64,000 nucleotides of DNA from Escherichia coli. Lineage in GTDB: Bacteria > Pseudomonadota > Gammaproteobacteria > Enterobacterales > Enterobacteriaceae. Below, piece by piece: positions 25,407-60,149 of this stretch. Position 1 is the first letter of the stretch, and the number at the start of each line of letters is the position of its first letter. Both the position numbers and the translations under genes were made by a program. The stretch is from NCBI RefSeq assembly GCF_003018255.1, contig NZ_CP027440.1; one strand, written 5' to 3'. A model generated the notes under the pieces. The model was not told the DNA's origin, did no database searches, and saw only the letters and a list, made by a program, of their open reading frames with translations.

Positions 25407-27698
25407 TTACCCTTCACGTTCTACCACTTTAATCTCCACCATGCCGATCCCGAGCTTACGCGGCGAGTGTCCGAGGATATTCCCTTCGTTGGTTGAGACA
25501 GGTTCCGGCGGCACAATTACCAGCGTGTCGGCATCGGTTGGGTTATCGAAATGCAGCGTGGTGGTGGTCACTTCATTGCCCAGCACAAGAGTTTGTTCTT
25601 CATTGCCTACGCGTACCGGAATAGGACGGCTGGCGTTATTGCCGTATGCTTTGGCGGTAATCACCAGGTCAAATTTCTTCGGCAGCGGATGCTTGTACTC
25701 GATTTTTACTTCGTCGCCCAGTTGCGCGTTGGACCAGCGGCCCCACGACTCCGGACGGGAAATTCCGCTAAACTGTTTCACCTCTTCTGGCGCACCGGCG
25801 ACGTTAAAGATGAAACTGTCGGCTTTGTAGCGAATATCGTTATCAACAATCTTCAGCGTATCGACATTGCCTTTGTAACGCGCCATGTCGATGACCGTAT
25901 CTTTAAATGCCGTTTTGCCCTTCCATGTTGTTTTGTCAACATGCTGGACAATTTGCTGACCGCCAAGCTGCCCTTGCGAGACACACCAGTCGGTGGAAAG
26001 TGCCAGTTCCGGAGCCCAGAGTTGTGCCATCTTATAGCAACGGTCAACCCAGACGAAATTGTCGCGTGGAGCGAAATCGGCCAGCTGGAAACGCAGCGGT
26101 GCTGAGTATTCGCTTTCCGGCAGCGGTTCCACGCGTTTGTCTGAAACCCGCAACAGCAGCGGCAAACGGAAATGGCTACCCGAGAAGGCAATCATGTTTT
26201 TCTGCTGGTCGATGGTGAACTCTTTCATCTCTTTAGGGAATTTCCACAGGCGGATGATATCTGGCTTCCACGCCAATGTTTTCTCTTTGATATTGAGGAA
26301 GATTTCCGACATCGACTGCCCGGATAAACTGCTACGACCAAGTCCGAGATAGTTATCGCCACCGAGAATGTCCAGCACCGTCGCGCCGTTATCCATCGTG
26401 TTACGCTTCACTGCCAGCGTCTCTTGCTGCGGCTTGTCGCCACGGATGACAAAAAACAGGTTATTGCGATCCTGCTTATTGAGGTATTTCCACGCCGTGT
26501 TGTTCATCGCTAAATGGTCAGAAGAGACGACGATGACGGTATCTTTAAACCACGGTGACGCTTTGATTTTGTTGATAAACGTCGCGATATTCTCCTGACT
26601 GCAACTTACCGCGCTGAATGACTGATTCGGCTTACCGTCAAAATCATATTTTTTGCGGTTACAGGTACGCGAGATAAAACCATCCGGGTGATGGGTATCG
26701 ACTGTCAGGGTAAACAGTGAGAATCGCTGACCTGAGCGGGAAAGCTCTTCAAACTTTTTCCACGCTTCATCGAGAACGGTATCGTCGTAGAATCCCCAGT
26801 CGTTGCGATAGTGCGGGTCGGCCACCACGCTTTTCAGCTCTTCTGAGCCGTATAAGTTGTCGAAGCCGTGCGATTTCAGGAACACATCTTTACCGGCAAA
26901 ACGCAGATTCGCGCCCTGCACGAAATAGTTCTGATAACCCGAGTTTTTCAGGATATCGCCCAGACAGATGTTCTGCGGGAAGAAGCTGGAGACAGAGGCG
27001 GAGGCGTTGCCTTCAAAGGGGGCAAACAGCGGTATGCCACACTGAGAAGCCACCATGCCTGCAATCGTGTAATCCGTTCCCGGCAGCTGCTGCGTGTGGC
27101 TGAAATCCAGGCCTTCATTTTTCAACGCGCCCAGTTCAGGCGTGAGATCCGGGAAAGCTTCGTTATCAAAATAGGTCCGCTCGAGACTTTCGCCGTAGAT
27201 ATAAACCAGGTTGAGTTTCGGGTCAGGGATAGTTTTCGACGGCTCTTTATAATAAGCCGCAAAGTCCGGGTCGCCGTCGCGTGACTGGGATTTCACCAGT
27301 TCCGTTATCTGACGAAATGCCGGGCTGGCATCCACTGAACCCAGCGCCAGTAAGAGTGCCAGCAGGCTGTAACCAAAATGGTGCGGATGATGACGACGAC
27401 GGCGCAGGATCCAGCCCAGCGCACCGAACACTGCCGTCAGCCCCAGCACAATGCCGATACCAGGCAGGATGTATTTGCTGACACCAGCACCGGTCAGGCT
27501 GTTGGTTAAGGTATAGAGAACCGCGTCGTTAATACCATCGCCAGTAAAATAGTCGCTGGCAAACAGGGTGATATTTAAAACGACAAATAGCCCCAGTACC
27601 GTTAATGTGGCTGCAAACCACCAGGTGTTACGTCCCGCTTTCCATGCGTAAATCAGCACAGAGGCGAGAAAAAGGGCGAAAGAGAGTAGTTCTGACAA
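25407..27698 (-). CDS. opgB: Phosphoglycerol transferase I OpgB (MdoB), 763 aa
   Basis: [28 protein letters not shown]... sulfatase-like domain; TTG start at 27696-27698 preceded by GAGGA. Confidence 0.9.
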
Positions 27699-27951
27699 CG
27701 GGCGATCCTCACTAAACCGGGCCGTTTAGCCAACGTTTAAGCTTTTTGAGAAGCACAATGTAATGGCGTCGCCATATTGCTGCAATTCTAGTGTCAAAAA
27801 AATGCGATGTTGTTAGGAATTAGTTTATAAACAGACTTTTTTGATTACGGTCGCTTCCCGTGTAACAGGGGGAAAACCGTCCAGGAGCAGGGAAAAGGGC
27901 AGGAGAGAGCCGCGTCAGCCGGGTAACAGCTAAAACGCGGCATTTCGCGGT

Positions 27952-28449
27952 TCAGGAAATGAAGTTCAGCCCCTGCTTTAACACCAGATCGCAGGCTTTG
28001 GTTTTCACCTTTTCTGCCAGCGGAGTCGTTCCAATATTATCCAGATTGAGTTGCTGACCATCTTTGGTTTTCAGCAAACCCTGAATGCCATCCAGATAGT
28101 TGGTGTCTTCTTTTTGCTCTTCACTGTTCAGGCCCAGTTTTTCCAGTACCTGATTCTTGATGTTTTCGACATCGGTTACCGAAGCCAGCTTTTGCTTCGC
28201 GCAGTATTGCAGAATGCCTGCGGCATTGTTCATGTTATCTGCGCTTAAGGCCTGGTTTCCGCTGCTAAGCAAGTTAGTTAATGACGCGAGCGACCAACCG
28301 CCTTCCTGTGTCGTGCTGTTTTGGTTGCCAAGTTCGCTGGCGGCGCTGGAGAGCGCATCTTTCCAGGACGCAGCATGCACCCCGGTGGAAATTAATGCGC
28401 TGGCGGCAATGGCACAGCACAGAAGATGTTTAATAGTTTTCATCATCAT
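27952..28449 (-). CDS. yjjA: DUF2501 secreted protein YjjA
   Basis: Signal-peptide-like N-terminus MMMKTIKHLLCCAIAASALISTGVHA; conserved position upstream of dnaC. Confidence 0.8.
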   Translation of the reverse strand: MMMKTIKHLLCCAIAASALISTGVHAASWKDALSSAASELGNQNSTTQEGGWSLASLTNLLSSGNQALSADNMNNAAGILQYCAKQKLASVTDVENIKNQVLEKLGLNSEEQKEDTNYLDGIQGLLKTKDGQQLNLDNIGTTPLAEKVKTKACDLVLKQGLNFIS

Positions 28450-28494
28450 TACTCAAGGTGGAATTGTGTCGCAGTATACCGCCAGAAACGGGGA

Positions 28495-29232
28495 TTAATA
28501 CTCTTTACCCGTTACCCGGCTACGGTAGCTATCCCAGTTGAAGATCACCCACAAACTGTTACCCAGGCGCATACGGTCCATCACGCGTTCGCCCAGCAAC
28601 TTGGTCATCTCTTCCATATTACTGTTGGTCAGCATCCCGGTTGGGCGTTTGGAAGAAGAGCGGCGATCGACGATCTGGTTGATGATCACTTTTTCGTATT
28701 TCGATTCGGTCTGCACGCCGATCTCATCGATCACCAGCAGATCAACGTTGCTCAGATCGTTAAGCAGTTGTTCTTCGCTGGTACCGCTATTCCTGAAGGT
28801 ATCTTTCATCGCCGACATAATATCGGCCACGGTGATGATCAATACGGATTTACCGCGTAGCAGCAGCTCGTTGCAGATTGCCGCCGCCAGATGGTTTTTG
28901 CCGGTTCCGGGCTTGCCAGAAAAGATGAAGCTGGCGATGTTGCCGTCAAACTCTTCGACATACTGGCGCGCTTTGCTTAACGCATTCATCTGCCCTTCAC
29001 ACTCAACGCGATAGTTCTCAAAGGAGCAGTTCTGATGCAGTGGACGAATACCGGAGCGGTTAAAGGTGCGCTGCATTTTCATCGCCCGATTTTCACGTTC
29101 GAGAGCGGCGGAGCGGATCGCTCCTTGTTCTTTCTGCCAGGCCAGTAGTTCTTCACCCGTTTTGAACGCAGGTTTGATATGGGCAGGCATCATTTTTTGC
29201 AGGCGTTGCATCAGGTCGCCAACGTTTTTCAT
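28495..29232 (-). CDS. dnaC: DNA replication helicase loader DnaC
   Basis: 245 aa, AAA+ Walker A GKPGTGKNHLAAAI. Confidence 0.95.
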   Translation of the reverse strand: MKNVGDLMQRLQKMMPAHIKPAFKTGEELLAWQKEQGAIRSAALERENRAMKMQRTFNRSGIRPLHQNCSFENYRVECEGQMNALSKARQYVEEFDGNIASFIFSGKPGTGKNHLAAAICNELLLRGKSVLIITVADIMSAMKDTFRNSGTSEEQLLNDLSNVDLLVIDEIGVQTESKYEKVIINQIVDRRSSSKRPTGMLTNSNMEEMTKLLGERVMDRMRLGNSLWVIFNWDSYRSRVTGKEY

Positions 29233-29234
29233 CG

Positions 29235-29774
29235 TTACCCTCTGAATCCTGGTGGAATTTGGCTGTCAGGTTCGCTGACCGTATTCACATCTCGTTTCGG
29301 CAGTCCGCCGTTGCTGGCACGGCCGATTTGCAGGCTGCGCGCCAGTTTTTGTTGCCACTGTACATGGTGAAAGACTTTACCTTCCGCCTGCCAGTAGGCA
29401 ATGAATGAGGCCAGTTCTTCGGTGGTCACCGGCTCTCTTAGCGCCACGCCCCATAGCGCCGCCAGGCGGATAAAGTCGGCATCGGGTTGCCAGTCCGGAT
29501 ACATGGCGAATTTCCCCATGGGTACAGCAACGGGAGCGGCTTGCGGTTCCTGATAGAGTTGATCGTCCAGAGCGACATCGCTTCCCGGACGCGCCAGCTT
29601 TTCTTCCAGCGCCAGCAGTTCAGCCAGGCGTGCAGGCGTGACGGCATAAAACGCCGGGGCGTTGTTGTCAAATACGGCAACCACACCGCCTTCAGCTTTT
29701 GCCAGAACGGTTTGGTGATCGTGTACCAGGGCGTCAATACCAACGACGTCCGGGGTCAAAACTCTGGAAGACAT
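29235..29774 (-). CDS. dnaT: Primosomal protein DnaT
   Basis: [32 protein letters not shown]... 179 aa from ATG at 29772-29774. Confidence 0.9.
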
Positions 29775-29881
29775 ACTGTTTCTCAAATATGGAACGATGA
29801 ACGAGAAGGGAGATAACTTTTATAGTAACACACGGAGGAGAGGAGGCTGTCTCTCATCCGCGTGCTTTAAGTGAGGCAATT

Positions 29882-30355
29882 TTATACGCGAGGGCGCTTG
29901 CGGTACAACCATAATCCAGGAATGGAAAGACCGATGGATAACGCACCAACAATTGATGAAGCTGTAAGAAAGTTGGTTAACAGGGTAATCATCAACGGTT
30001 CGCTGTAACCTAGCTGGCTGATTTTTACCGCCGAAATCATTGCGGTATAAGCCGATATGCCAGGGAACATAGGAATAACAGCCGCCACGGTAAACACTTT
30101 CGGATGCGCCAGATACCAGCGCGACCATTGAATACCAATGGTGCCGACCAGCATAGAAGCCATAAAAGTTGACCACTCAATATTCAGCCCGCTGGTCATT
30201 AAGATCATTCGGGAACCATGACCTATCGAGCCAAGCAGCGCACACCAGCGTAACGCCCGCACGGGAACGTTGAACACCATCGCAAAGCCGACCGCAGGAA
30301 TGGCGGCGAGGATCATATCCTGCGCCAACGCTAACAGAAATTCGATCACACCCAT
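29882..30355 (-). CDS. yjjB: ThrE-family (DUF3815) inner membrane protein YjjB
   Basis: [24 protein letters not shown]... 157 aa; overlaps the yjjP stop by 10 nt. Confidence 0.8.
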
Positions 30356-31116
30356 CCGCGTAGCCCCCAAATCGTCAGTGCCATCACCACGCCGACGCAG
30401 GTAGCCAGTGTCAGCAGACTGGCGATCGCCCAGCGTGCCAGTCCGGTATTGATGTGGCCTTTAAACATATCGGCGACGGCATTAATCAACGGAAAACCCG
30501 GCACCAGCAGCAGAACGCTGGCGGCCATCGCGATAGTGGGTGTATTGCTGAAAGTGGGAAGTTGCAAAAGCAAACCGGAAATGGTGGTGGCGGCGAAAGC
30601 GGTGAGGCAAAAGTTGATCTGTGGATGAAGATGACGTTGTGCCAGCAGCTGGCGGATATACATCGCGACCGTACTGGCAAAGAAGGTGATGACGGCACCA
30701 TCCCAGCCACCTTTATTGAGTTTACAGAAACAGGCGCAAGAAAGGCCGACCATTAAGGCTACCAGCCATCTCGGGTAACGTAATGGCTGAATTTGGCTAA
30801 ATCGTTTCTCTACACCTTTGTAATCCAGCAGATGATGCTCCGCCAGAATCACAATGTGCTGGACTTCAGTCACCACATGCATATTAATGCCGCGATCGTG
30901 ATTTTTTCGTGTCGATGTCAGGCATTGCCCATCTTTAATGGTTGTCAGCACTATGGCGTTCGAAGAGATAGAACTTTCGACGCTGTCCATTCCCAACGCC
31001 CGACCCAGTCGTGAGGAAAGCTCATCAACCAACGCGCTTTCCGCACCATGTTGCAAAAGAAATAATCCACACTGGATACAAAGCCGTGTTACGGCTCGCT
31101 GTTGCTCAGTTTGCAT
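30346..31116 (-). CDS. yjjP: ThrE-family (DUF1212) inner membrane protein YjjP
   Basis: [30 protein letters not shown]... 256 aa. Confidence 0.8.
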
Positions 31117-31734
31117 AACTCGCCCTTTGTCATAGACGTGCTGCGTATTGTTCAGATAATGAGAATCCATTTGTATCATGAAGCACGGTTGTTTTGCGGC
31201 AGGTTAAGATCAAAATTGCGCTGATTAATCCTGGTTATCGGGAGAAGCTCGGTGTTAAAAAGCGAATTATCTCTCGTCGCAAACAAATTATCGCATGAAT
31301 ATTATCACTATAATGAATTTATTGTTTAGCCCTTACGAATCAGGATAAAAGATAACTGGGCGCGTTTTTTAATTTTTACAAGTTAAAACTATCAGATTTT
31401 ATTGAATAAATATTGATTGTGTGATTTTGCATTCTGCTGGAAGGGATATCAGTTAATTATAAATTAAATGAATGAGAATTCTGTTTTTCATTAAGTATTT
31501 CTAACAACTTAATGTAGATATTTTAAATGTCTCCAGGCTATTTCACCAGGTTATCATTTGATGCTAACCTTCTGACACATGCAGTGGAGTTGTTGTGCAG
31601 CAGGAGTATGCTGATATGAAAGTGAATGCTAAGGATAATTTATTCGCTTAATCTATTAATTTGCTGGAAACATTTAAGGAATGAATATCCTGAATAAACC
31701 ATCATGATTTTTAGACAGTGGATGTGGAGGAAAT

Positions 31735-33095: not shown

Positions 33096-33131
33096 TCCAC
33101 ATGATGCCGGGTTTACTTCCCCGGCAGTGCT

Positions 33132-33920: not shown

Positions 33921-33924
33921 AATC

Positions 33925-34297: not shown

Positions 34298-34335
34298 TAA
34301 AACAGGGAAGAAACAAGAAAGGAAGTAAAGATAAT

Positions 34336-40479: not shown

Positions 40480-40600
40480 ATTTCAGACCATTAAGAAAAT
40501 TTTATCCAAAGCCAGTCCAGCGGACTGGCTTTTGCGGTTTTAGCGAATAATAAATTGCGTTACTTTGTCATTCTTTCACAACAAAAACAGGAAGGCAGAG

Positions 40601-41674
40601 GTGGGGCAGCGAATACCTGTAACGCTTGGTAATATTGCGCCGTTGTCGCTAAGGCCGTTCCAGCCTGGACGAATAGCTCTGGTGTGCGAAGGCGGCGGAC
40701 AGCGTGGAATTTTCACGGCTGGCGTGCTGGATGAGTTTATGCGCGCGCAGTTTAATCCTTTCGATCTTTATCTCGGCACATCTGCCGGGGCGCAGAACCT
40801 CTCGGCGTATATCTGCAATCAGCCCGGTTACGCGCGCAAAGTCATCATGCGCTATACCACAAAACGCGAATTTTTCGATCCATTGCGCTTTGTCCGTGGA
40901 GGAAATCTTATCGATCTCGACTGGCTGGTGGAGGCCACTGCAAGCCAGATGCCGTTGCAAATGGATACCGCCGCGCGGTTGTTTGACAGCGGCAAATCGT
41001 TTTATATGTGCGCCTGTCGTCAGGATGACTATGCGCCGAATTACTTTTTACCAACCAAACAAAACTGGCTGGATGTGATTCGCGCCTCCAGTGCGATACC
41101 TGGCTTTTATCGTAGCGGAGTGTCGCTGGAAGGCATTAACTACCTGGATGGCGGGATCAGTGATGCGATTCCGGTTAAAGAGGCGGCAAGGCAGGGAGCA
41201 AAAACCTTGGTCGTCATCCGCACCGTGCCGTCGCAAATGTACTACACGCCGCAGTGGTTCAAACGCATGGAACGCTGGCTGGGTGACAGTAGCCTGCAGC
41301 CGCTGGTCAATCTGGTGCAGCATCATGAAACCAGCTATCGTGACATTCAGCAATTTATTGAGAAACCACCGGGCCAGCTGCGGATATTCGAAATTTATCC
41401 GCCGAAGCCGTTGCATAGTATCGCGCTTGGCAGTCGGATTCCGGCGCTGCGTGAAGACTATAAACTTGGGCGTTTATGCGGTCGTTATTTTCTGGCAACG
41501 GTCGGTAAGTTATTGACTGAAAAAGCGCCGCTTACCCGCCATCTGGTGCCGGTGGTGACGCCGGAATCGATTGTCATTCCGCCTGCGCCAGTCGCCAACG
41601 ATACGCTGGTTGCCGAAGTGATCGACGCTCCGCAGGCGAACGACCCGACATTTAACAATGAGGATCTGGCTTGA
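40601..41674 (+). CDS. yjjU: Patatin-like phospholipase YjjU
   Basis: GxGxxG (CEGGGQRG) and GTSAG serine-hydrolase motif; GTG start at 40601. Confidence 0.85.
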   Translation: MGQRIPVTLGNIAPLSLRPFQPGRIALVCEGGGQRGIFTAGVLDEFMRAQFNPFDLYLGTSAGAQNLSAYICNQPGYARKVIMRYTTKREFFDPLRFVRGGNLIDLDWLVEATASQMPLQMDTAARLFDSGKSFYMCACRQDDYAPNYFLPTKQNWLDVIRASSAIPGFYRSGVSLEGINYLDGGISDAIPVKEAARQGAKTLVVIRTVPSQMYYTPQWFKRMERWLGDSSLQPLVNLVQHHETSYRDIQQFIEKPPGQLRIFEIYPPKPLHSIALGSRIPALREDYKLGRLCGRYFLATVGKLLTEKAPLTRHLVPVVTPESIVIPPAPVANDTLVAEVIDAPQANDPTFNNEDLA

Positions 41675-42450
41675 TTTGCCGTTTTATCGACACCCACTGC
41701 CATTTTGATTTCCCGCCTTTTAGTGGTGATGAAGAGGCCAGCCTGCAACGCGCGGCACAAGCGGGCGTAGGCAAGATCATTGTTCCGGCGACAGAGGCGG
41801 AAAATTTTGCCCGCGTGCAGGCGTTAGCGGAAAAATATCAACCGCTGTATGCCGCATTGGGCTTGCATCCTGGTATGTTGAAAAAACATAGCGATGTGTC
41901 TCTTGATCAGCTACAGCAGGCGCTGGAAAGGCGTCCGGCGAAGGTGGTGGCGGTGGGGGAGATCGGTCTGGATCTCTTCGGCGACGATCCGCAATTTGAG
42001 AGGCAGCAGTGGTTACTCGACGAACAACTGAAACTGGCGAAACGCTACGATCTGCCGGTGATCCTGCATTCACGGCGCACACACGACAAACTGGCGATGC
42101 ATCTTAAACGCCACGATTTGCCACGCACTGGCGTGGTTCACGGTTTTTCCGGCAGCCTGCAACAGGCCGAAAGGTTTGTACTGCTGGGCTACAAAATCGG
42201 CGTAGGCGGTACTATCACCTATCCACGCGCCAGTAAAACCCGCGATGTCATCGCAAAATTACCGCTGGCATCGTTGTTGCTGGAAACCGACGCGCCGGAT
42301 ATGCCGCTCAACGGCTTTCAGGGGCAGCCTAACCGCCCGGAACAGGCTGCGCGGGTGTTTGACGTACTTTGCGAGTTACGCCCGGAACCAGAAGATGAGA
42401 TTGCCGAAGTGTTGCTAAATAATACGTATACGTTGTTTAACGTGCCGTAG
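41671..42450 (+). CDS. yjjV: TatD-family metal-dependent hydrolase/DNase YjjV
   Basis: (M)ICRFIDTHCHFDFPPF... TatD motifs; TTG start overlapping the yjjU stop. Confidence 0.85.
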   Translation: MICRFIDTHCHFDFPPFSGDEEASLQRAAQAGVGKIIVPATEAENFARVQALAEKYQPLYAALGLHPGMLKKHSDVSLDQLQQALERRPAKVVAVGEIGLDLFGDDPQFERQQWLLDEQLKLAKRYDLPVILHSRRTHDKLAMHLKRHDLPRTGVVHGFSGSLQQAERFVLLGYKIGVGGTITYPRASKTRDVIAKLPLASLLLETDAPDMPLNGFQGQPNRPEQAARVFDVLCELRPEPEDEIAEVLLNNTYTLFNVP

Positions 42451-42667
42451 GCCGGATAAGGCGTTCACGCCGCATCCGGCAGTTGGCGCACAATGCCTGA
42501 TGCGACGCTTGACGCGTCTTATCATGCCTACAAGTCTGTGCCGAACCGTAGGCCGGATAAGGCGTTCACGCCGCATCCGGCAGCTGGCGCACAATGCCTG
42601 ATGCGACGCTTGACGCATCTTATCATGCCTACAGGTCTGTGCCGATCCGTAGGCCGTATCCGGCATG
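42447..42667. repeat. BIME-type tandem array: two ~100-bp units (each carrying two REP palindromes) plus a partial third unit
   Basis: Units 42447-42547 and 42548-42645 are near-identical (GTAGGCCGGATAAGGCGTTCACGCCGCATCCGGCAG...TGCCTGATGCGACGCTTGACGC...) followed by GTAGGCCGTATCCGGCATG. Confidence 0.65.
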
Positions 42668-46090: not shown

Positions 46091-46167
46091 GGCTTGATTT
46101 GCCGGATGATGCAGCGATGCTCATCCGGTTCCCCGATTACCTCGTCTCTTTTCCACGGGAGGTTACC

Positions 46168-47490
46168 TTGTTTCTCGCACAAGAAATTATTCGTAAAAAA
46201 CGTGATGGTCATGCGCTGAGCGATGAAGAAATTCGTTTCTTTATCAACGGTATTCGCGACAACACTATCTCCGAAGGGCAGATTGCCGCCCTCGCGATGA
46301 CCATTTTCTTCCACGATATGACAATGCCTGAGCGTGTCTCGCTGACCATGGCTATGCGAGATTCAGGAACCGTTCTCGACTGGAAAAGCCTGCATCTGAA
46401 TGGCCCGATTGTTGATAAACACTCGACCGGCGGCGTCGGCGATGTCACTTCGCTGATGTTGGGGCCGATGGTCGCAGCCTGCGGCGGCTATATTCCGATG
46501 ATCTCCGGTCGCGGCCTCGGTCATACTGGCGGTACGCTCGACAAACTGGAATCCATCCCTGGCTTCGACATTTTCCCGGATGACAACCGTTTCCGCGAAA
46601 TTATTAAAGACGTCGGCGTGGCGATTATCGGCCAGACCAGCTCACTGGCTCCGGCGGATAAACGTTTCTACGCGACCCGTGATATTACCGCAACCGTGGA
46701 CTCCATCCCGCTGATCACTGCCTCTATTCTGGCGAAGAAACTGGCGGAAGGTCTGGACGCGCTGGTGATGGACGTGAAAGTAGGTAGCGGCGCGTTTATG
46801 CCGACCTACGAACTCTCTGAAGCCCTTGCCGAAGCGATTGTTGGCGTGGCTAACGGCGCTGGCGTGCGCACCACCGCGCTGCTCACCGATATGAATCAGG
46901 TACTGGCCTCCAGTGCAGGTAACGCGGTTGAAGTTCGTGAAGCGGTGCAGTTCCTGACGGGTGAATATCGTAACCCGCGTCTGTTTGATGTCACGATGGC
47001 ACTGTGCGTGGAGATGCTGATCTCCGGCAAACTGGCGAAAAATGACGCCGAAGCGCGCGCGAAATTGCAGGCGGTGCTGGACAACGGTAAAGCGGCAGAA
47101 GTCTTTGGTCGTATGGTCGCGGCACAAAAAGGCCCGACCGACTTCGTTGAGAACTACGCGAAGTATCTGCCGACAGCGATGCTGACGAAAGCAGTCTATG
47201 CTGATACCGAAGGGTTTGTCAGTGAAATGGATACCCGCGCACTGGGGATGGCAGTGGTTGCAATGGGCGGCGGACGCCGTCAGGCATCTGACACCATCGA
47301 TTACAGCGTCGGCTTTACTGATATGGCGCGTCTGGGCGACCAGGTAGACGGTCAGCGTCCGCTGGCAGTTATCCACGCGAAAGACGAAAACAGCTGGCAG
47401 GAAGCGGCGAAAGCGGTGAAAGCGGCAATTAAACTTGCCGATAAAGCACCGGAAAGCACACCAACTGTCTATCGCCGTATCAGCGAATAA
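46168..47490 (+). CDS. deoA: Thymidine phosphorylase
   Basis: (M)[31 protein letters not shown]... 440 aa; TTG start at 46168 preceded by GGGAGG. Confidence 0.9.
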
Positions 47491-49541: not shown

Positions 49542-49573
49542 TTGTGTTTTGCTGAAAGGCGATTGTCGTGTGA

Positions 49574-49603
49574 AGCCGGAGTGGGAGACTGCTCCGGCTT
49601 TTT
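49574..49603 (+). terminator. Rho-independent terminator of the deo operon
   Basis: 8-bp stem AGCCGGAG/CTCCGGCT with 10-nt loop, followed by TTTTT. Confidence 0.7.
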
Positions 49604-49701
49604 AGTATTTATTCATCAATAGCAACTGATTTATAGATTTACTATTATTTTTCATATGGATAGAAAATAAAATCCATTCAAGTATCTATTCACGAATCTA
49701 T

Positions 49702-49965
49702 TCATTTATGTTCAGCCGTCATCCAGGAAGGGCATATCAGCAACTCTGGTGGACAACCATAAATTCCTGCCATTTTGCTTTTGATGTTTGAACTAAGCCG
49801 TTCCGTCTTTTCGATCTGTTTTAGAGAATTAATGGAGATACCTAACATTTTACTTACTTCAGCAAGTGATAGTTTATGCCTGATACGCACGGCGGTTAGC
49901 CAGGATATACCCTGGCTGAACATTAAATTGATAATCTCCCGTTCCTGGTTTTCCAGATCGATCAT
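49702..49965 (-). CDS. Small XRE-type helix-turn-helix protein (87 aa), hypothetical
   Basis: ATG at 49963-49965 preceded by GGAAGGA; HTH-like segment KLSLAEVSKMLGISINSLKQIEKTER; AT-rich DNA; lies where K-12 has yjjJ. Confidence 0.5.
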   Translation of the reverse strand: MIDLENQEREIINLMFSQGISWLTAVRIRHKLSLAEVSKMLGISINSLKQIEKTERLSSNIKSKMAGIYGCPPELLICPSWMTAEHK

Positions 49966-49996
49966 ATTTCCTTCCCTGGATATTTTAATCAGCGAG

Positions 49997-52759: not shown

Positions 52760-52807
52760 TTGCCTGCCCGTCATCCTGCGGGCGGCACAGCATTAACGAG
52801 GTACACC

Positions 52808-54190
52808 GTGGCAAAAGCTCCAAAACGCGCCTTTGTTTGTAATGAATGCGGGGCCGATTATCCGCGCTGGCAGGGGCAGTGCAGCGCCTGTCATGCCTGG
52901 AACACCATCACCGAGGTGCGTCTTGCTGCGTCGCCAACGGTGGCGCGTAACGAGCGTCTCAGTGGCTATGCCGGTAGCGCCGGAGTGGCAAAAGTCCAGA
53001 AACTTTCCGACATCAGCCTTGAGGAGCTGCCGCGTTTTTCCACCGGATTTAAAGAGTTCGACCGCGTATTAGGCGGCGGGGTGGTGCCGGGAAGCGCCAT
53101 TCTGATTGGCGGTAACCCAGGTGCGGGGAAATCCACGCTGTTGCTGCAAACGCTGTGCAAACTGGCGCAGCAGATGAAAACGCTGTATGTCACTGGCGAA
53201 GAGTCGCTGCAACAGGTGGCAATGCGCGCTCATCGCCTTGGCCTGCCGACTGACAATCTTAATATGCTGTCGGAAACCAGCATCGAGCAGATCTGCCTGA
53301 TTGCCGAAGAAGAGCAACCGAAGCTGATGGTAATTGACTCCATCCAGGTGATGCATATGGCGGATGTTCAGTCATCGCCTGGCAGCGTGGCGCAGGTGCG
53401 TGAAACGGCGGCTTATCTGACGCGCTTCGCCAAAACGCGCGGCGTGGCGATTGTCATGGTTGGGCACGTAACCAAAGATGGCTCGCTGGCTGGCCCTAAA
53501 GTGCTGGAACACTGTATCGACTGTTCGGTGCTTCTGGATGGCGATGCCGACTCTCGTTTTCGCACCTTACGCAGCCATAAAAACCGCTTCGGCGCGGTGA
53601 ATGAGCTGGGCGTCTTCGCGATGACCGAACAGGGGCTGCGTGAAGTTAGCAACCCTTCCGCCATCTTTTTAAGCCGCGGTGATGAAGTGACCTCCGGTAG
53701 CTCAGTGATGGTAGTGTGGGAAGGAACGCGTCCACTGTTGGTGGAGATCCAGGCGCTGGTCGATCACTCGATGATGGCGAACCCACGCCGCGTCGCAGTA
53801 GGGCTGGAGCAAAACCGTCTGGCAATCCTGCTGGCGGTGCTGCACCGTCACGGTGGGTTGCAAATGGCCGATCAGGATGTATTTGTTAACGTGGTCGGCG
53901 GCGTGAAGGTAACGGAAACCAGCGCCGACTTAGCGTTACTGCTGGCGATGGTTTCCAGCCTGCGCGACAGACCGCTGCCGCAGGATCTGGTGGTGTTTGG
54001 TGAAGTCGGGCTGGCAGGGGAGATCCGCCCGGTGCCCAGCGGCCAGGAACGAATTTCTGAAGCGGCGAAACACGGTTTTCGCCGGGCGATTGTTCCGGCG
54101 GCTAACGTGCCGAAAAAAGCGCCGGAAGGGATGCAGATTTTTGGCGTTAAAAAACTCTCCGACGCGCTTAGCGTGTTCGACGACTTATAA
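52808..54190 (+). CDS. radA: DNA repair protein RadA (Sms)
   Basis: (M)AKAPKRAFVCNECGADYPRWQGQCSACHAWNTI (zinc finger), Walker A GNPGAGKST, Lon-like C-terminus; GTG start at 52808. Confidence 0.95.
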   Translation: MAKAPKRAFVCNECGADYPRWQGQCSACHAWNTITEVRLAASPTVARNERLSGYAGSAGVAKVQKLSDISLEELPRFSTGFKEFDRVLGGGVVPGSAILIGGNPGAGKSTLLLQTLCKLAQQMKTLYVTGEESLQQVAMRAHRLGLPTDNLNMLSETSIEQICLIAEEEQPKLMVIDSIQVMHMADVQSSPGSVAQVRETAAYLTRFAKTRGVAIVMVGHVTKDGSLAGPKVLEHCIDCSVLLDGDADSRFRTLRSHKNRFGAVNELGVFAMTEQGLREVSNPSAIFLSRGDEVTSGSSVMVVWEGTRPLLVEIQALVDHSMMANPRRVAVGLEQNRLAILLAVLHRHGGLQMADQDVFVNVVGGVKVTETSADLALLLAMVSSLRDRPLPQDLVVFGEVGLAGEIRPVPSGQERISEAAKHGFRRAIVPAANVPKKAPEGMQIFGVKKLSDALSVFDDL

Positions 54191-54210
54191 TGAGAGATAC
54201 GGAGGGAGAT

Positions 54211-55443
54211 ATGTCGTCATTTGATTACCTGAAAACTGCCATCAAGCAACAGGGCTGCACGCTACAGCAGGTCGCTGATGCCAGCGGTATGACCAAAGGG
54301 TATTTAAGCCAGTTACTGAATGCCAAAATTAAAAGCCCCAGCGCGCAAAAGCTGGAGGCGTTGCACCGTTTTTTGGGGCTTGAATTTCCCCGACAGAAGA
54401 AAACCATTGGTGTCGTATTCGGTAAGTTCTACCCGCTGCATACCGGACATATCTACCTTATCCAGCGCGCCTGTAGCCAGGTTGACGAGCTGCATATCAT
54501 TATGGGCTTTGACGATACCCGCGACCGCGCGTTGTTCGAAGACAGCGCCATGTCGCAGCAGCCCACGGTGCCGGATCGTCTGCGCTGGTTATTGCAAACC
54601 TTTAAATATCAGAAAAATATCCGTATTCATGCTTTCAATGAAGAGGGCATGGAGCCATATCCGCACGGCTGGGATGTATGGAGCAACGGCATCAAAAAGT
54701 TTATGGCTGAAAAGGGGATCCAGCCGGACCTGATCTACACCTCGGAAGAAGCCGATGCGCCACAGTATATGGAACATCTGGGGATCGAAACGGTGCTGGT
54801 CGATCCGAAACGCACCTTTATGAGTATCAGCGGTGCGCAGATCCGCGAAAACCCGTTCCGCTACTGGGAATATATCCCCACTGAAGTGAAGCCGTTTTTT
54901 GTGCGTACCGTGGCGATCCTTGGCGGCGAGTCGAGCGGTAAATCCACCCTGGTAAACAAACTTGCCAATATCTTCAATACCACCAGTGCGTGGGAATATG
55001 GTCGCGATTATGTCTTTTCACACCTCGGCGGTGATGAGATCGCATTGCAGTATTCCGACTACGATAAAATCGCGCTGGGACACGCACAATACATTGATTT
55101 TGCAGTGAAATATGCCAATAAAGTGGCGTTTATCGACACTGATTTTGTCACTACCCAGGCGTTCTGCAAAAAGTACGAAGGGCGGGAGCATCCGTTCGTG
55201 CAGGCGCTGATCGATGAATACCGTTTTGATCTGGTTATCTTGCTGGAGAACAACACCCCTTGGGTGGCGGATGGTTTACGCAGCCTCGGCAGTTCGGTGG
55301 ATCGCAAAGAGTTCCAGAACTTGCTGGTGGAGATGCTGGAAGAGAACAATATCGAATTTGTGCGGGTTGAAGAAGACGATTATGACAGCCGTTTCCTGCG
55401 CTGCGTGGAGCTGGTGCGGGAGATGATGGGGGAGCAAAGATAA
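54211..55443 (+). CDS. nadR: Trifunctional NAD biosynthesis/regulator protein NadR
   Basis: MSSFDYLKTAIKQQGCTLQQVADASGMTKGYLSQLLN (HTH), NMN adenylyltransferase domain (GKFYPLHTGH) and kinase P-loop (GGESSGKST). Confidence 0.95.
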   Translation: MSSFDYLKTAIKQQGCTLQQVADASGMTKGYLSQLLNAKIKSPSAQKLEALHRFLGLEFPRQKKTIGVVFGKFYPLHTGHIYLIQRACSQVDELHIIMGFDDTRDRALFEDSAMSQQPTVPDRLRWLLQTFKYQKNIRIHAFNEEGMEPYPHGWDVWSNGIKKFMAEKGIQPDLIYTSEEADAPQYMEHLGIETVLVDPKRTFMSISGAQIRENPFRYWEYIPTEVKPFFVRTVAILGGESSGKSTLVNKLANIFNTTSAWEYGRDYVFSHLGGDEIALQYSDYDKIALGHAQYIDFAVKYANKVAFIDTDFVTTQAFCKKYEGREHPFVQALIDEYRFDLVILLENNTPWVADGLRSLGSSVDRKEFQNLLVEMLEENNIEFVRVEEDDYDSRFLRCVELVREMMGEQR

Positions 55444-55485
55444 TCATCTTTATAAGATGTTGAGTGGGATTACTGATTCAAAAGT

Positions 55486-55518
55486 GTACTTAGTACTCCA
55501 TTTTGGTGTACAATGTAC
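55486..55518. promoter_or_regulatory. Two palindromic operator-like sites overlapping the putative toxin-antitoxin promoter
   Basis: GTACTTAGTAC (55486-55496) and GTACAATGTAC (55508-55518), perfect 5-1-5 inverted repeats 22 bp apart centre to centre; TACAAT (55509-55514) is a candidate -10. Confidence 0.4.
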
Positions 55519-55534
55519 CTTCCAGGGAGGGGTA

Positions 55535-55867
55535 ATGGGTAAGGCGATAATATTTATAGAGACGCCAATGTTTACGCGTCAGATCAAGCAGATTGCAACC
55601 GATGATGAATTAAAGGAATTACAAAAAGAACTCATCGGAACTCCCGATAAAGGTGATCTCATTCAGCAGACTGGTGGATTGCGTAAAGTCCGAATGGCTG
55701 CGGGTTCACAGGGAAAAAGTGGCAGTGTCAGAATAATTTACTTTCTGGCGACGGAAGAGATTATTTATTTGATTATGGCCTATCCGAAAAATGCCAAAGA
55801 TAGTCTGACAGATACGGAAAAAGCTCAACTAAAGAAGTTGACGAAACTGCTCAAAGGCGAGATATAA
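55535..55867 (+). CDS. RelE/ParE-superfamily toxin (HigB-/Gp49-like 'addiction module killer'), 110 aa
   Basis: ATG at 55535 preceded by GGGAGGGG; MGKAIIFIETPMFTRQIKQI...GGLRKVRMAAGSQGKSGSVRIIYFLATEEIIYLIMAYPKNAKDSL resembles RelE/HigB-type toxins; toxin-first gene order. Confidence 0.6.
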   Translation: MGKAIIFIETPMFTRQIKQIATDDELKELQKELIGTPDKGDLIQQTGGLRKVRMAAGSQGKSGSVRIIYFLATEEIIYLIMAYPKNAKDSLTDTEKAQLKKLTKLLKGEI

Positions 55868-55868
55868 A

Positions 55869-56153
55869 ATGAGTTTTTTTGATGAGTTGAAAACCTCTCT
55901 GGAAGAGGCTGTCGAGATTAAACAAGGTTTAAAAGAACCTGCACGGGTGACCCGCTACGAAATTGCGGATGTTAAAGCTATTCGTGAGCAACTCAACGTT
56001 TCGCAAAGTGAGATGGCAAAAGCTCTGGGAACCAGTGTGGATACCATTAAAAGCTGGGAATCGAAGCGAAGAAATCCTACGGGATTGGCTGCAAAAGTAC
56101 TTGCCACAATTAAAGAAAATCCTGACTTTTTCCGGGAACTTGCCTCCCATTAA
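55869..56153 (+). CDS. XRE-family HTH antitoxin (HigA-like), 94 aa
   Basis: ATG 1 nt after the toxin stop; HTH segment QSEMAKALGTSVDTIKSWESKRRNP. Confidence 0.6.
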   Translation: MSFFDELKTSLEEAVEIKQGLKEPARVTRYEIADVKAIREQLNVSQSEMAKALGTSVDTIKSWESKRRNPTGLAAKVLATIKENPDFFRELASH

Positions 56154-56166
56154 TCATTTAACTAAT

Positions 56167-56196
56167 ACCGGATGCGATGCTGGCGCGCCGCATCCG
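56167..56196. repeat. REP element
   Basis: CCGGATGCGATGCTGGCGCGCCGCATCCGG palindrome between the antitoxin gene and the ettA 3' end. Confidence 0.5.
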
Positions 56197-56208
56197 GCAT
56201 TTTACGCA

Positions 56209-57876
56209 TTACTTCGCAATACGCTTGTACTTGATACGCTTCGGCTCCAGCGCGTCTGCGCCCAGCGTGCGTTTCTTGTACTCTTCGTACTCGGTAAAGT
56301 TACCTTCGAAGAACTCAACTTTACCCTCATCCTGGTAATCCAGGATGTGCGTGGCGATACGGTCGAGGAACCAACGGTCGTGCGAGATAACCATCGCGCA
56401 GCCCGGGAACTCCAGCAGGGCGTTTTCCAGCGCGCGCAGGGTTTCGATATCCAGGTCGTTGGTTGGTTCGTCGAGCAGCAGCATGTTGCCGCCAACTTGC
56501 AGCAACTTCGCCAGATGCAGACGACCGCGCTCACCGCCGGAGAGTTCGCCAACGCGTTTACCCTGATCAACCCCTTTAAAGTTAAAGCGGCCAACGTAGG
56601 CGCGGCTTGGCATCTCGGTGTTGCCGATTTTCATGATATCCAGCCCGCCGGAAACTTCTTCCCAAACGGTTTTGCTGTTATCCATTGAGTCACGGAACTG
56701 ATCAACCGATGCCAGTTTCACCGTTTCACCCAAAGTGATGGTGCCGCTGTCCGGCTGTTCCTGACCAGAGATCATACGGAACAGCGTCGATTTACCCGCA
56801 CCGTTCGGACCGATGATCCCGACGATCGCCCCTTTCGGGATCGAGAAACTCAGGGAGTCAATCAGCAGACGATCGCCATAGGATTTACGCAGATTGCTGA
56901 CTTCCAGCACTTTGTCGCCCAGACGCGGTCCAGGTGGAATAAACAGTTCGTTGGTTTCGTTACGTTTCTGATATTCGGTGCTGTTCAGTTCTTCAAAGCG
57001 CGCCAGACGTGCTTTACCTTTCGACTGACGGCCTTTAGTACCTTGACGTACCCACTCCAGCTCTTTCTCAATCGACTTACGACGCGCAGCTTCTTGTGAA
57101 GCTTCCTGCGCCAGACGCTGATCTTTCTGCTCCAGCCAGGAGGAGTAGTTACCTTCCCACGGAATACCTTCACCGCGGTCCAGTTCGAGGATCCAGCCCG
57201 CAACGTTATCGAGGAAGTAACGGTCGTGGGTAATCGCCACAACGGTGCCTTCGAAGTCGTGCAGGAAGCGTTCCAGCCAGGCCACGGATTCGGCATCCAG
57301 GTGGTTGGTCGGTTCGTCGAGCAGCAGCATGTCTGGTTTTTCCAGCAGCAGGCGGCACAACGCCACGCGACGACGCTCACCACCGGAGAGGTTAGCGATT
57401 TTCGCGTCCCAATCCGGCAGACGCAGCGCATCCGCCGCACGCTCCAGCTGAACGTTCAGGTTGTGACCGTCGTGAGCCTGAATGATCTCTTCCAGACGGC
57501 CCTGTTCAGCGGCCAGTTTGTCAAAATCGGCATCCGGATCGGCGTACAGTGCATACACTTCATCCAGGCGTTTCAGGGCGTTAACCACTTCAGAAACCGC
57601 TTCTTCAATGGACTCACGCACGGTGTGTTCCGGGTTCAACTGCGGTTCCTGCGGCAGATAACCAATCTTGATATCCGGTTGCGGACGCGCTTCGCCTTCG
57701 ATGTCTTTATCAATGCCCGCCATAATGCGCAGCAGGGTGGACTTACCCGCGCCGTTCAGACCCAGGACACCAATTTTTGCCCCAGGGAAGAAACTCAGAG
57801 AGATGTTTTTCAAAATATGACGTTTCGGCGGAACAACTTTGCCGACACGATGCATGGTATAAACGAATTGAGCCAC
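56209..57876 (-). CDS. ettA: Energy-dependent translational throttle protein EttA (YjjK), ABC-F ATPase
   Basis: 555 aa with two ABC cassettes (GLNGAGKST, GPNGAGKST); GTG start preceded by GAGG. Confidence 0.95.
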   Translation of the reverse strand: MAQFVYTMHRVGKVVPPKRHILKNISLSFFPGAKIGVLGLNGAGKSTLLRIMAGIDKDIEGEARPQPDIKIGYLPQEPQLNPEHTVRESIEEAVSEVVNALKRLDEVYALYADPDADFDKLAAEQGRLEEIIQAHDGHNLNVQLERAADALRLPDWDAKIANLSGGERRRVALCRLLLEKPDMLLLDEPTNHLDAESVAWLERFLHDFEGTVVAITHDRYFLDNVAGWILELDRGEGIPWEGNYSSWLEQKDQRLAQEASQEAARRKSIEKELEWVRQGTKGRQSKGKARLARFEELNSTEYQKRNETNELFIPPGPRLGDKVLEVSNLRKSYGDRLLIDSLSFSIPKGAIVGIIGPNGAGKSTLFRMISGQEQPDSGTITLGETVKLASVDQFRDSMDNSKTVWEEVSGGLDIMKIGNTEMPSRAYVGRFNFKGVDQGKRVGELSGGERGRLHLAKLLQVGGNMLLLDEPTNDLDIETLRALENALLEFPGCAMVISHDRWFLDRIATHILDYQDEGKVEFFEGNFTEYEEYKKRTLGADALEPKRIKYKRIAK

Positions 57877-57965
57877 GTTGGACTTCGCCTCTATGTTTAT
57901 CGTGATGATGAGTTTTCAAAGGCGAAGTGTAGCCTGTTTCCTTATCTAATCCCAGCCGGTCGATC

Positions 57966-58075
57966 ACCCTCGCAGTATACTCGTCATACTTCAAGTTGCA
58001 TGTGCTGCGCTTACGCTCGCTCACCCCAGTCACTTACTTCTGTAAGCTCCTGGGGACTCACTCACTTATCGCCTT
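57966..58075 (-). repeat. ERIC (IRU) element
   Basis: Reverse complement contains GTGAGTCCCCAGGAGCTTACAGAAGTAAGTGACTGGGGTGAGCGAGCG, matching the ERIC core inverted repeats. Confidence 0.55.
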
Positions 58076-58211
58076 CCTGCAACTCGAATTATTTAGAGTA
58101 TAAAAGTAAAAAAGTGTCCGTAACGTGGCGTAAACGGCAATGACTGGTTAGCATAAATCTATTACGCGGCATGACGCTGCATTGATGTATTTACACTTAG
58201 AGGATGCGCTT

Positions 58212-60149
58212 GTGGAAAAAGCCAAACAAGTTACCTGGCGGCTGTTGGCTGCCGGTGTCTGTCTGCTGACGGTCAGCAGCGTGGCGCGAGCCGACTCACT
58301 GGATGAGCAGCGTAGCCGCTACGCCCAAATCAAGCAGGCCTGGGATAATCGACAAATGGATGTGGTCGAACAAATGATGCCTGGACTGAAAGATTATCCG
58401 CTTTATCCCTACCTGGAATACCGTCAGATCACCGATGACCTGATGAATCAACCGGCGGTGACGGTCACTAACTTTGTTCGCGCTAACCCCACGCTTCCTC
58501 CCGCTCGCACGCTGCAATCTCGTTTCGTCAATGAACTGGCGCGGCGTGAAGACTGGCGTGGCTTGTTAGCCTTTAGCCCGGAAAAGCCCGGAACTACCGA
58601 AGCGCAATGTAATTACTACTATGCGAAATGGAACACCGGGCAGAGTGAAGAAGCCTGGCAAGGGGCGAAAGAGCTGTGGCTAACCGGCAAGAGCCAGCCT
58701 AACGCCTGTGACAAGTTATTTAGCGTCTGGCGTGCGTCAGGTAAACAAGATCCGCTGGCGTATTTAGAGCGTATCCGTCTGGCGATGAAAGCGGGTAACA
58801 CTGGACTCGTAACAGTGCTGGCAGGGCAGATGCCTGCCGATTACCAGACTATCGCCTCGGCAATCATTTCACTGGCGAACAACCCTAATACGGTACTGAC
58901 CTTCGCGCGTACAACCGGAGCGACCGATTTTACCCGTCAAATGGCGGCGGTGGCGTTTGCCAGTGTGGCGCGGCAGGATGCTGAAAATGCACGGCTGATG
59001 ATCCCGTCGCTTGCCCAGGCGCAGCAGCTTAATGAAGATCAGATTCAGGAGCTGCGCGATATCGTCGCCTGGCGTTTGATGGGCAATGATGTCACCGATG
59101 AGCAGGCGAAATGGCGCGATGACGCCATTATGCGTTCGCAATCTACTTCGCTTATTGAACGGCGCGTGCGAATGGCGCTTGGCACCGGCGATCGTCGCGG
59201 CCTGAATACCTGGCTGGCGCGTTTGCCGATGGAGGCGAAAGAGAAAGATGAATGGCGTTACTGGCAGGCGGATTTACTGCTGGAACGCGGACGTGAAGCT
59301 GAAGCAAAAGAGATTTTGCATCAACTCATGCAACAGCGTGGTTTCTACCCGATGGTTGCAGCACAACGCATCGGTGAAGAGTATGAGCTGAAGATTGATA
59401 AAGCGCCGCAGAATGTTGACAGCGCCCTGACTCAGGGGCCGGAGATGGCGCGCGTGCGCGAGTTGATGTACTGGAATCTCGATAATACCGCGCGTAGCGA
59501 GTGGGCCAATCTGGTGAAGAGCAAGTCAAAAACAGAGCAGGCGCAACTGGCTCGGTATGCTTTCAATAACCAATGGTGGGAACTTAGCGTTCAGGCAACG
59601 ATCGCCGGGAAGCTTTGGGATCATCTGGAAGAGAGATTCCCGCTGGCCTACAACGATCTTTTCAAACGTTACACCAGTGGGAAGGAGATCCCGCAAAGCT
59701 ATGCGATGGCGATTGCCCGTCAGGAGAGCGCCTGGAATCCGAAAGTGAAATCACCGGTAGGGGCCAGCGGCCTGATGCAGATTATGCCGGGCACGGCGAC
59801 CCATACGGTGAAGATGTTCTCTATTCCTGGTTATAGCAGCCCTGGGCAATTGCTGGATCCGGAAACGAACATCAACATTGGCACCAGTTACCTGCAATAT
59901 GTTTATCAGCAGTTTGGCAATAACCGTATTTTCTCCTCAGCAGCTTATAACGCCGGACCTGGACGGGTGCGAACCTGGCTTGGCAACAGCGCCGGGCGTA
60001 TCGACGCTGTGGCATTTGTCGAGAGTATTCCGTTCTCCGAGACGCGCGGTTATGTGAAGAACGTGCTGGCTTATGACGCTTACTACCGCTATTTCATGGG
60101 GGATAAACCGACGTTGATGAGCGCCACGGAATGGGGACGTCGTTACTGA
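58212..60149 (+). CDS. slt: Soluble lytic murein transglycosylase Slt70
   Basis: (M)EKAKQVTWRLLAAGVCLLTVSSVARA signal peptide, superhelical domain, C-terminal lysozyme-like ES-GLMQ motif; GTG start at 58212. Confidence 0.9.
   Translation: MEKAKQVTWRLLAAGVCLLTVSSVARADSLDEQRSRYAQIKQAWDNRQMDVVEQMMPGLKDYPLYPYLEYRQITDDLMNQPAVTVTNFVRANPTLPPARTLQSRFVNELARREDWRGLLAFSPEKPGTTEAQCNYYYAKWNTGQSEEAWQGAKELWLTGKSQPNACDKLFSVWRASGKQDPLAYLERIRLAMKAGNTGLVTVLAGQMPADYQTIASAIISLANNPNTVLTFARTTGATDFTRQMAAVAFASVARQDAENARLMIPSLAQAQQLNEDQIQELRDIVAWRLMGNDVTDEQAKWRDDAIMRSQSTSLIERRVRMALGTGDRRGLNTWLARLPMEAKEKDEWRYWQADLLLERGREAEAKEILHQLMQQRGFYPMVAAQRIGEEYELKIDKAPQNVDSALTQGPEMARVRELMYWNLDNTARSEWANLVKSKSKTEQAQLARYAFNNQWWELSVQATIAGKLWDHLEERFPLAYNDLFKRYTSGKEIPQSYAMAIARQESAWNPKVKSPVGASGLMQIMPGTATHTVKMFSIPGYSSPGQLLDPETNINIGTSYLQYVYQQFGNNRIFSSAAYNAGPGRVRTWLGNSAGRIDAVAFVESIPFSETRGYVKNVLAYDAYYRYFMGDKPTLMSATEWGRRY

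Follow-up and report, generated by a model that had tools for sequence, protein, structure and literature searches.

Eight GTG and TTG start codons in the yjiR-creB segment of an Escherichia coli chromosome and their conservation among relatives

The genes considered here lie in a 64,000-nt stretch of a non-K-12 Escherichia coli chromosome (the window; contig NZ_CP027440.1 of assembly GCF_003018255.1) that forms the yjiR-creB segment, equivalent to approximately 4.58-4.637 Mb in K-12. Eight genes of the window begin with a codon other than ATG: lgoT, yjjU, radA, ettA and slt with GTG, and opgB, yjjV and deoA with TTG (Table 1). These starts had been proposed in an original prediction made from the sequence, which described them as a cluster, credited each with a plausible Shine-Dalgarno (SD) sequence, and warned that the start of the longest open reading frame (ORF) is misleading for eleven other genes. 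All eight are found at the predicted codons. They also coincide with reference annotation, and where orthologues could be compared the non-ATG state recurs in related species.

Start positions and reference annotation

Identity of at least 99% to the window is reached by just eight or nine of about 5,450 matching records, and on this count K-12 itself was ruled out as the strain. The right half is closest to DETEC-S792 (99.8%) and the left half to SCU-171 and its relatives (99.2%). We used the RefSeq/PGAP annotation of SCU-171 and DETEC-S792 together with curated K-12 MG1655 (NC_000913.3) as references, and placed 45 K-12 coding-sequence starts on the window by local alignment. For 8/8 genes the curated K-12 start falls exactly on the window start with the identical codon, which is the outcome of the alignment check that the prediction had itself suggested. 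In K-12 coordinates the eight starts are lgoT 4594722 (minus), opgB 4599441 (minus), yjjU 4612411, yjjV 4613481, deoA 4618229, radA 4625912, ettA 4630522 (minus) and slt 4630733. The SCU-171 and DETEC-S792 starts concur, and protein lengths match those of K-12 (lgoT 453, opgB 763, yjjU 357, yjjV 259, deoA 440, radA 460, ettA 555 and slt 645 aa), so the non-ATG codons are indeed required for the known N-termini. ATG is the start codon of the 37 remaining mapped K-12 orthologues and of every strain-specific gene in the window, which makes the predicted list of eight complete. The GTG of lgoT was correctly placed at 22977, but that position falls outside the span of 25407-60149 to which the prediction had assigned the group.

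Between the window and K-12 MG1655 the eight genes are approximately 98-99% identical. Strain-specific insertions and deletions lie elsewhere and leave the eight starts untouched, except for one in repetitive extragenic palindromic (REP) sequence upstream of the deoA SD.

Table 1. Non-ATG start codons in the window, with their SD sequences and reference starts. For minus-strand genes the first number is the lowest plus-strand coordinate of the codon, 2 below the start base, as in the original prediction.
Feature	Position	Strand	SD sequence	Reference
lgoT GTG start	22977..22979	-	AGGAG 22986-22990	K-12 b4356 start and PGAP start
opgB TTG start	27696..27698	-	GAGGA 27706-27710	K-12 b4359 start
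yjjU GTG start	40601..40603	+	AGGAAGG 40589-40595	K-12 b4377 start
yjjV TTG start, TTGA overlap with yjjU stop	41671..41674	+	GAGGA 41660-41664, inside yjjU	K-12 b4378 start
deoA TTG start	46168..46170	+	GGGAGGT 46157-46163	K-12 b4382 start
radA GTG start	52808..52810	+	GAGGT 52798-52802	K-12 b4389 start
ettA GTG start	57874..57876	-	AGAGG 57888-57892, 11-nt spacer	K-12 b4391 start
slt GTG start	58212..58214	+	AGAGGA 58199-58204	K-12 b4392 start

SD pairing and in-frame competitors

In each gene, all in-frame ATG, GTG and TTG codons that lie between the upstream stop and +120 nt were taken as candidate starts, and a pairing energy with the 3' end of the 16S rRNA was calculated for each. Among these candidates, anti-SD pairing is strongest at the annotated start in all eight genes, at -5.8 to -11.0 kcal/mol, and the SD sequences anticipated for them are therefore not only present but the best-pairing ones in their ORFs. 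The energies are -11.0 kcal/mol for deoA, the second strongest in the window after lgoR (-11.4), then -7.2 for radA, -6.9 for lgoT, -6.5 for yjjU, -6.4 for opgB, and -5.8 for both ettA and slt. Seven genes have an SD spacer of 5-7 nt, and ettA has a suboptimal one of 11 nt. The mean SD energy of the eight genes (-7.0 kcal/mol) is stronger than that of 36 ATG genes in the window (-5.1 kcal/mol, the hipH remnant excluded; one-sided Mann-Whitney P=0.044), which fits the reported compensation of weak start codons by strong SD sequences (PMC5622118).

In lgoT, opgB, yjjV and ettA the start is the first one possible downstream of an in-frame stop, which is located at -18, -30, -12 and -42, respectively, and opgB has no in-frame ATG within 120 nt. 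In the remaining four the longest ORF begins upstream of the annotated start, by 36 nt in yjjU, 69 nt in deoA, 48 nt in radA and 30 nt in slt, at codons with weak pairing (+0.4 to -3.6 kcal/mol). The TTG at -36 of yjjU, for example, has an energy of +0.4 vs -6.5 kcal/mol at the annotated GTG, and the TTG at -30 and ATG at -27 of slt have -1.7 vs -5.8 kcal/mol.

The longest-ORF rule fails well beyond these four genes. For all eleven genes that the prediction had named, the longest-ORF start lies upstream of the annotated one, with offsets of -84 nt in yjiA, -15 in btsT, tsr and yjjB, -12 in dnaT, -63 in yjjP, -27 in prfC, -24 in deoC, -57 in deoD, -138 in serB and -21 in nadR. Every gene on that list was correctly named, but the list is incomplete, as more than ten others behave alike, among them lgoD, yjjA, yjjZ, osmY, ytjA, yjjX and several strain-specific genes. 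Altogether 21/45 K-12 orthologues in the window are misplaced, about half of its genes, and gene callers have to allow GTG and TTG as starts, using SD strength to rank them. This need is standard knowledge that is already built into reference annotations. In nadR, the ATG that opens the longest ORF is at 54190, where the radA coding range (52808-54190 including the stop) ends, vs 54211 for the curated ATG. Among the species compared, the curated nadR position is occupied by ATG in 30 cases, GTG in 9, TTG in 5 and a non-start codon in 5 (loci L004-L083), amounting to approximately eight independent changes from ATG to GTG or TTG, unlike the invariant ATG of neighbouring control genes.

Orthologous starts in related species

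A scan of species-representative genomes with DeoD and 10-kb flanks recovered 80 Enterobacterales loci, from Escherichia to Xenorhabdus, which can span six of the eight starts, and tblastn alignments were projected to residue 1. At the orthologous position, yjjU has 45 GTG, 12 TTG and 1 ATG among 58 species, deoA has 48 TTG, 22 GTG and 5 ATG among 75, and radA has 39 GTG, 8 TTG and 5 ATG among 52. The ettA start is GTG in 27/27 species, and that of slt in 18/19, with the 19th having a GTG one codon upstream. The control genes deoC (73), deoB (78), deoD (80) and lplA (36) are 100% ATG. In cross-species alignments of up to 75 species, coding conservation begins at the start codon, and upstream of it the SD alone is kept. 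Many species have in-frame stops 6-27 nt upstream, such as the stop at -6 found in many radA leaders and those at -12 to -18 in several species for slt. Three Yersinia species carry an ATG immediately before the yjjU GTG and may start there.

The ettA leader (57877-57892, minus strand) stands out in that its SD AGAGG lies 10-11 nt upstream of the start codon, vs the usual 5-9 nt. Both this long spacing and the GTG are kept in 27/27 species, from Escherichia to Yersinia and Erwinia, a pattern suggesting that initiation of this translation factor is kept deliberately weak, or is regulated, at a conserved site.

The genes lgoT and opgB are not in the 80 deoD-centred loci, where only distant paralogues of the major facilitator superfamily were matched, and we approached them through metagenome contigs that carry no taxonomic labels, using for OpgB a degenerate DNA pattern for a catalytic peptide of 10 residues. 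Among 93 contigs with an OpgB N-terminus the start is TTG in 68 and GTG in 18 (86/93 TTG or GTG). Reduced to distinct contexts of at least 60% identity, there are approximately 32 with TTG, 11 with GTG and one with ATG, where in two of the TTG contexts (L115 and L107) the codon was taken one triplet 3' of where the projection falls; ATG is otherwise confined to homologues below 60% identity. For lgoT, GTG is found in 20/20 contigs, yet these represent 5 distinct contexts, all of at least 90% identity.

The deoA leader offers a separate view of where coding sequence begins. The deoC-deoA spacer (46091-46167) measures 77 nt in the window and in DETEC-S792 and 126 nt in K-12 and SCU-171. K-12 has two REP-like palindromic units (a pair resembling a bacterial interspersed mosaic element), and the window has one, with the deoA SD and TTG intact; the repeat was recognised by eye from the alignment. 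This 49-nt indel between the window and K-12 means that the spacer cannot be coding.

On these comparisons, the non-ATG state of the eight genes is a conserved, gene-specific trait among relatives, a modest addition to what annotation already records.

The yjjU-yjjV overlap

The TTG of yjjV shares a TTGA with the TGA stop of yjjU on the same strand, and the yjjV SD lies within yjjU. N-terminal indels complicate the alignment of YjjV, and its starts across species were located by anchoring on the yjjU stop codon. An NTGA overlap is kept in 53/60 species, as GTGA in 37, ATGA in 15 and TTGA in 1 (E. albertii), in addition to the TTGA of the window. Since the overlap is GTGA in most genera, the TTG of yjjV is a variant of the Escherichia lineage derived from an ancestral GTG. 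Four-nucleotide stop/start overlaps of the ATGA type in operons are associated with translational coupling, and yjjU and yjjV resemble them in both the overlap and the location of the SD in the upstream gene. They differ from the textbook case in that most genera have GTG, and Escherichia TTG, as the overlapping start, and coupling is here deduced from the sequence. The two genes are probably coupled by termination-reinitiation, and under such coupling the identity of the yjjV start codon would matter less.

Directly 3' of yjjV, at 42450-42629, there are two tandem matches to the Rfam family naRNA4 (a nucleoid-associated, REP-derived noncoding RNA; 76.6 and 70.9 bits). No RNA family was detected by Rfam at the eight start regions themselves; its matches elsewhere in the window are symR, the two naRNA4 copies and three tRNA-Leu.

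Local density of non-ATG starts

Published start usage puts the eight genes in context. The proportions of ATG, GTG and TTG are given as 83/14/3% for E. coli and as 81.8/13.8/4.35% in 34 well-annotated genomes (bioRxiv 10.1101/063800), AUG starts as approximately 89-90% (PMC5622118), and ATG as 91% among proteomically detected annotated starts (PMC13245402), and the 2006 K-12 record held 81 annotated UUG starts and no more (PMC4909307). As a control under the same annotation standard we took three arbitrary 50-kb K-12 regions, which contain 131 ATG, 7 GTG and 2 TTG starts among 140 genes, or 6.4% non-ATG. The window, with 8/45 vs 9/140, therefore shows a nominal 2-3-fold excess (Fisher one-sided P=0.028), and TTG taken alone gives 3/45 vs 2/140 (P=0.094). 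Binomial tests give P values between 0.03 and 0.88 according to the base rate assumed and the gene set counted, be it the predicted span, the K-12 orthologues or all of the approximately 60 genes. The proposed cluster is thus borne out as a nominal excess but is not robust, given about 100 such windows per genome and the spread of the genes over at least six transcription units. As more than this it is not well supported, and it would fail correction for about 100 windows.

Start-codon change on the species tree

Start-codon changes were counted by parsimony on a neighbour-joining tree of 78 taxa built from deoB and deoD. The reconstructed root is non-ATG for all six genes that can be followed on this tree (yjjU, yjjV, deoA, radA, ettA and slt). 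There are no start-codon changes in ettA or slt, 3 in radA, 5 in yjjU, 6 in yjjV and 13 in deoA, of which 10 are swaps between GTG and TTG; the ATG control genes have zero. Four-fold degenerate sites of the same genes undergo a mean of 4.5-21.8 changes per site. Taken over the five uncoupled genes, start codons have changed at their first base 21 times, vs approximately 40 changes expected from four-fold sites if two of the three possible substitutions are assumed to be neutral (P about 9e-4).

The direction of change departs from the published pattern as well. Reported switches number 202 for GUG to AUG vs 37 for GUG to UUG, and 43 for UUG to AUG vs 35 for UUG to GUG (PMC5622118). In our genes we count 3 changes from GTG to ATG vs 6 to TTG, where 85% would be expected to go to ATG (P=0.0008), and 3 changes from TTG to ATG vs 9 to GTG (P=0.035). 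Switches to ATG are therefore rarer than in the published background from both starting codons, which suggests that purifying selection may act to keep a weak start. In ettA and slt the GTG does not vary, and deoA, opgB and yjjU swap TTG and GTG but seldom reach ATG.

Other features of the window

Several regions of the window distinguish it from K-12. At its left end, 545-8951 is a restriction-defence region unlike that of K-12, with an EcoAI/FtnUII-type type I system (hsdRMS). A 697-aa ORF of DUF262/GmrSD type (545 onwards) is intact here and in SCU-171 corresponds to a pseudogene plus a 387-aa gene, and symE/SymR lies at 2685-3097 (Rfam symR, 91.7 bits). At 10101-10292, a 63-aa hypothetical gene that has an ATG start in SCU-171 has ACG in its place in the window, and either is not a gene or is unexpressed in this strain. 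Between btsT and tsr, a block of approximately 6 kb (14016-19723) that is absent from K-12 encodes an amino acid deaminase, an N-acyl-D-amino-acid deacylase, RidA, a sodium:solute symporter and an RpiR-family regulator, all five with ATG starts.

In DETEC-S792 a lambda-like prophage lies directly upstream of prfC (positions 1-17386 of its locus, L001, corresponding to about 37600 of the window), and the window has no prophage there; prfC is annotated one codon shorter in that strain, at 528 vs 529 aa. In the deoD-lplA interval (49542-49996), the 1.3-kb toxin kinase gene hipH (yjjJ) of K-12 is mostly gone, with its 5' end region left. The K-12 hipH start maps to 49708, and RefSeq calls an 87-aa helix-turn-helix ORF at 49702-49965 in the closest strain, on the opposite strand. 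Finally, the nadR-ettA interval (55535-56153) holds a RelE/ParE-family toxin gene and a NadS-family gene, a toxin-antitoxin-like pair that is absent from K-12, where the counterpart is a 308-nt spacer alone.

Discussion

The positions of the eight starts, their agreement with annotation, their SD ranking and their recurrence across species are all observed, and together they leave us with high confidence that these are ordinary, correctly annotated GUG and UUG initiation codons of conserved housekeeping and accessory genes, gene-specific and ancestral. As genuine near-cognate sites that already stand in the curated K-12 and RefSeq annotation, they are, in this respect, already known. Initiator formylmethionyl-tRNA would read GUG or UUG in the P site of the 30S subunit, assisted by a good SD, and the protein would still start with methionine. 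IF3 is the gatekeeper, and a regulatory start of the infC type is a codon outside the AUG/GUG/UUG class against which IF3 discriminates. All eight codons are GTG or TTG, in the canonical near-cognate class, and are thus unlike the IF3-autoregulated AUU of infC. The window holds no sign of anything beyond the standard mechanism of GUG and UUG initiation. We infer that initiation at these starts would run several-fold below that expected at AUG. GUG and UUG have been found to initiate at 10-100% of AUG in reporters, with an N-terminal methionine (bioRxiv 10.1101/063800), and elsewhere at 8-12-fold below AUG (PMC11445065). The weak start is very probably a trait of each gene, passed down from the common ancestor of the Enterobacterales, rather than of a chromosomal region, and the nearness of the eight genes essentially coincidence.

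Two alternatives question what these starts are or why they occur together. Part of the non-ATG annotation could be in error, with translation truly beginning at a nearby in-frame ATG or other candidate. Such codons do exist (ATG at +21 of ettA, ATG at -27 and TTG at -30 of slt, ATG at -51 and TTG at -69 of deoA, TTG at -36 of yjjU and TTG at -48 of radA), K-12 starts have been repeatedly revised, with protein versions.2-.4 for slt, opgB and yjjV, and searches for direct experimental start data came back empty. However, these codons pair poorly with the anti-SD (+0.4 to -3.6 kcal/mol, vs -5.8 to -11.0 at the annotated starts), the upstream ones are missing in other species or blocked there by the in-frame stops described above, and the residues that follow the annotated start are conserved (MFLAQEII, MAKAPKRA, MAQFVYTM). 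Upstream of deoA there is REP DNA in which the 49-nt indel shifts the frame, and the supplements of the TetRP start-site re-mapping list none of the genes searched for. Misannotation is, on this evidence, most improbable. A real regional effect, whether mutational bias, a shared expression regime or a horizontally acquired block, might instead enrich the segment for non-ATG starts. The excess over the control regions, with its lesser counterpart for TTG, is what such an effect would produce, and for the predicted span at a 10% base rate the binomial P is 0.032. But the span was picked after its genes had been seen, a few of about 100 windows per genome are expected to reach P of about 0.03, and P becomes 0.25-0.88 once all of the approximately 60 window genes are counted. 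Functionally the eight genes are unrelated, and they are spread over both strands and at least six transcription units. The non-ATG start persists in genera for which the deoD scan recovered the neighbourhood only in part (of 80 loci, 27 include ettA and 19 slt), and the adjacent deoC, deoB, deoD, lplA and serB are invariably ATG, from which it follows that the non-ATG property tracks the gene and not the region. We consider a regional cause very unlikely.

Whether ordinary, gene-specific starts of this kind are also actively maintained is a closer matter. We give roughly even chances to the proposition that the weak start is held by selection against AUG across the Enterobacterales, opposing a genome-wide drift to AUG. 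The competing view, that the non-ATG codons are neutral relics among which ATG, GTG and TTG are interchangeable and which persist through inheritance and weak selection, strikes us as possible, though we lean away from it. Start codons reportedly experience weak selection, and a considerable span of initiation rates is reported as neutral (PMC5622118); this would accommodate the frequent toggling of deoA between TTG and GTG (10 of its 13 changes) and the ATG variants of deoA, radA, yjjU and yjjV that occur in several healthy lineages. For ettA alone, zero changes are also seen at 10% of four-fold sites. Neutrality sits less well with the deficit of first-base changes in the five genes summed, with the under-representation of changes to ATG from both GTG and TTG, or with ettA and slt, whose GTG has no exception in lineages with an average of 4.5-6.4 changes per synonymous site. 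Maintenance by selection would fit a possible explanation offered in earlier work, in which purifying selection acts on some of the GUG starts of slow-evolving genes (PMC5622118), and would also fit the conserved non-ATG starts described for sugar regulators (PMC11445065).

Several points weigh against these readings. Gene-level initiation data for the eight starts, whether from Ribo-RET, TetRP or N-terminomics, were sought and none was retrieved. The TetRP supplements contain none of the six genes searched for by name; the incomplete Table S1 of the TRAINSPOTTER N-terminomics study gave no match by gene name, UniProt accession or N-terminal peptide, and the eight genes were not found in the supplements of Giess et al. 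2017. These absences say little, as the tables may be incomplete or list revised starts only. Protein Data Bank chains of DeoA (440 aa), EttA (555 aa; 4FIN) and YjjV (259 aa; 1ZZM) match the proposed starts exactly in extent, 1ZZM beginning MICRF and the DeoA chains LFLAQ, where the first residue, L, is a literal reading of TTG. We rejected these chains as proof of native N-termini, since their sequences derive from DNA or expression constructs. The comparison for lgoT is shallow, at 90% identity or more, and the metagenome contigs are taxonomically unlabelled. The selection tests are approximate, given a two-gene neighbour-joining tree, parsimony and a background taken from other taxa. The deoA start is fairly labile, with its 13 changes, and the local excess at P=0.028 is not explained by coincidence but merely judged compatible with it.

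In their general features the eight starts resemble bacterial GUG and UUG starts at large, which are likewise preceded by SD sequences stronger than average (Belinky, Rogozin and Koonin 2017, PMC5622118; Hecht et al., bioRxiv 10.1101/063800). Genome-wide, non-AUG starts tend toward AUG (PMC5622118), whereas in these genes that switch is rarer. Another parallel is found in the sugar regulators lacI, cra and mlc, each with a gene-specific non-ATG start conserved across genera of the Enterobacteriaceae (Cherrak et al. 2024, PMC11445065). Those three are transcription regulators, and for lacI a fitness effect of GTG vs ATG was shown experimentally (PMC11445065); the present set consists of enzymes, transporters, a repair protein and a translation factor, with starts described from sequence.

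If the weak start is indeed maintained, each of these genes would have an evolutionarily fixed low set-point of translation initiation, which in ettA would be reinforced by the conserved, over-long SD spacer. For the eight genes as a group, the weak start is an ancient gene-specific trait and not annotation noise. They are reasonable candidates for GTG- or TTG-to-ATG swaps in work on expression tuning, although they open no new question.

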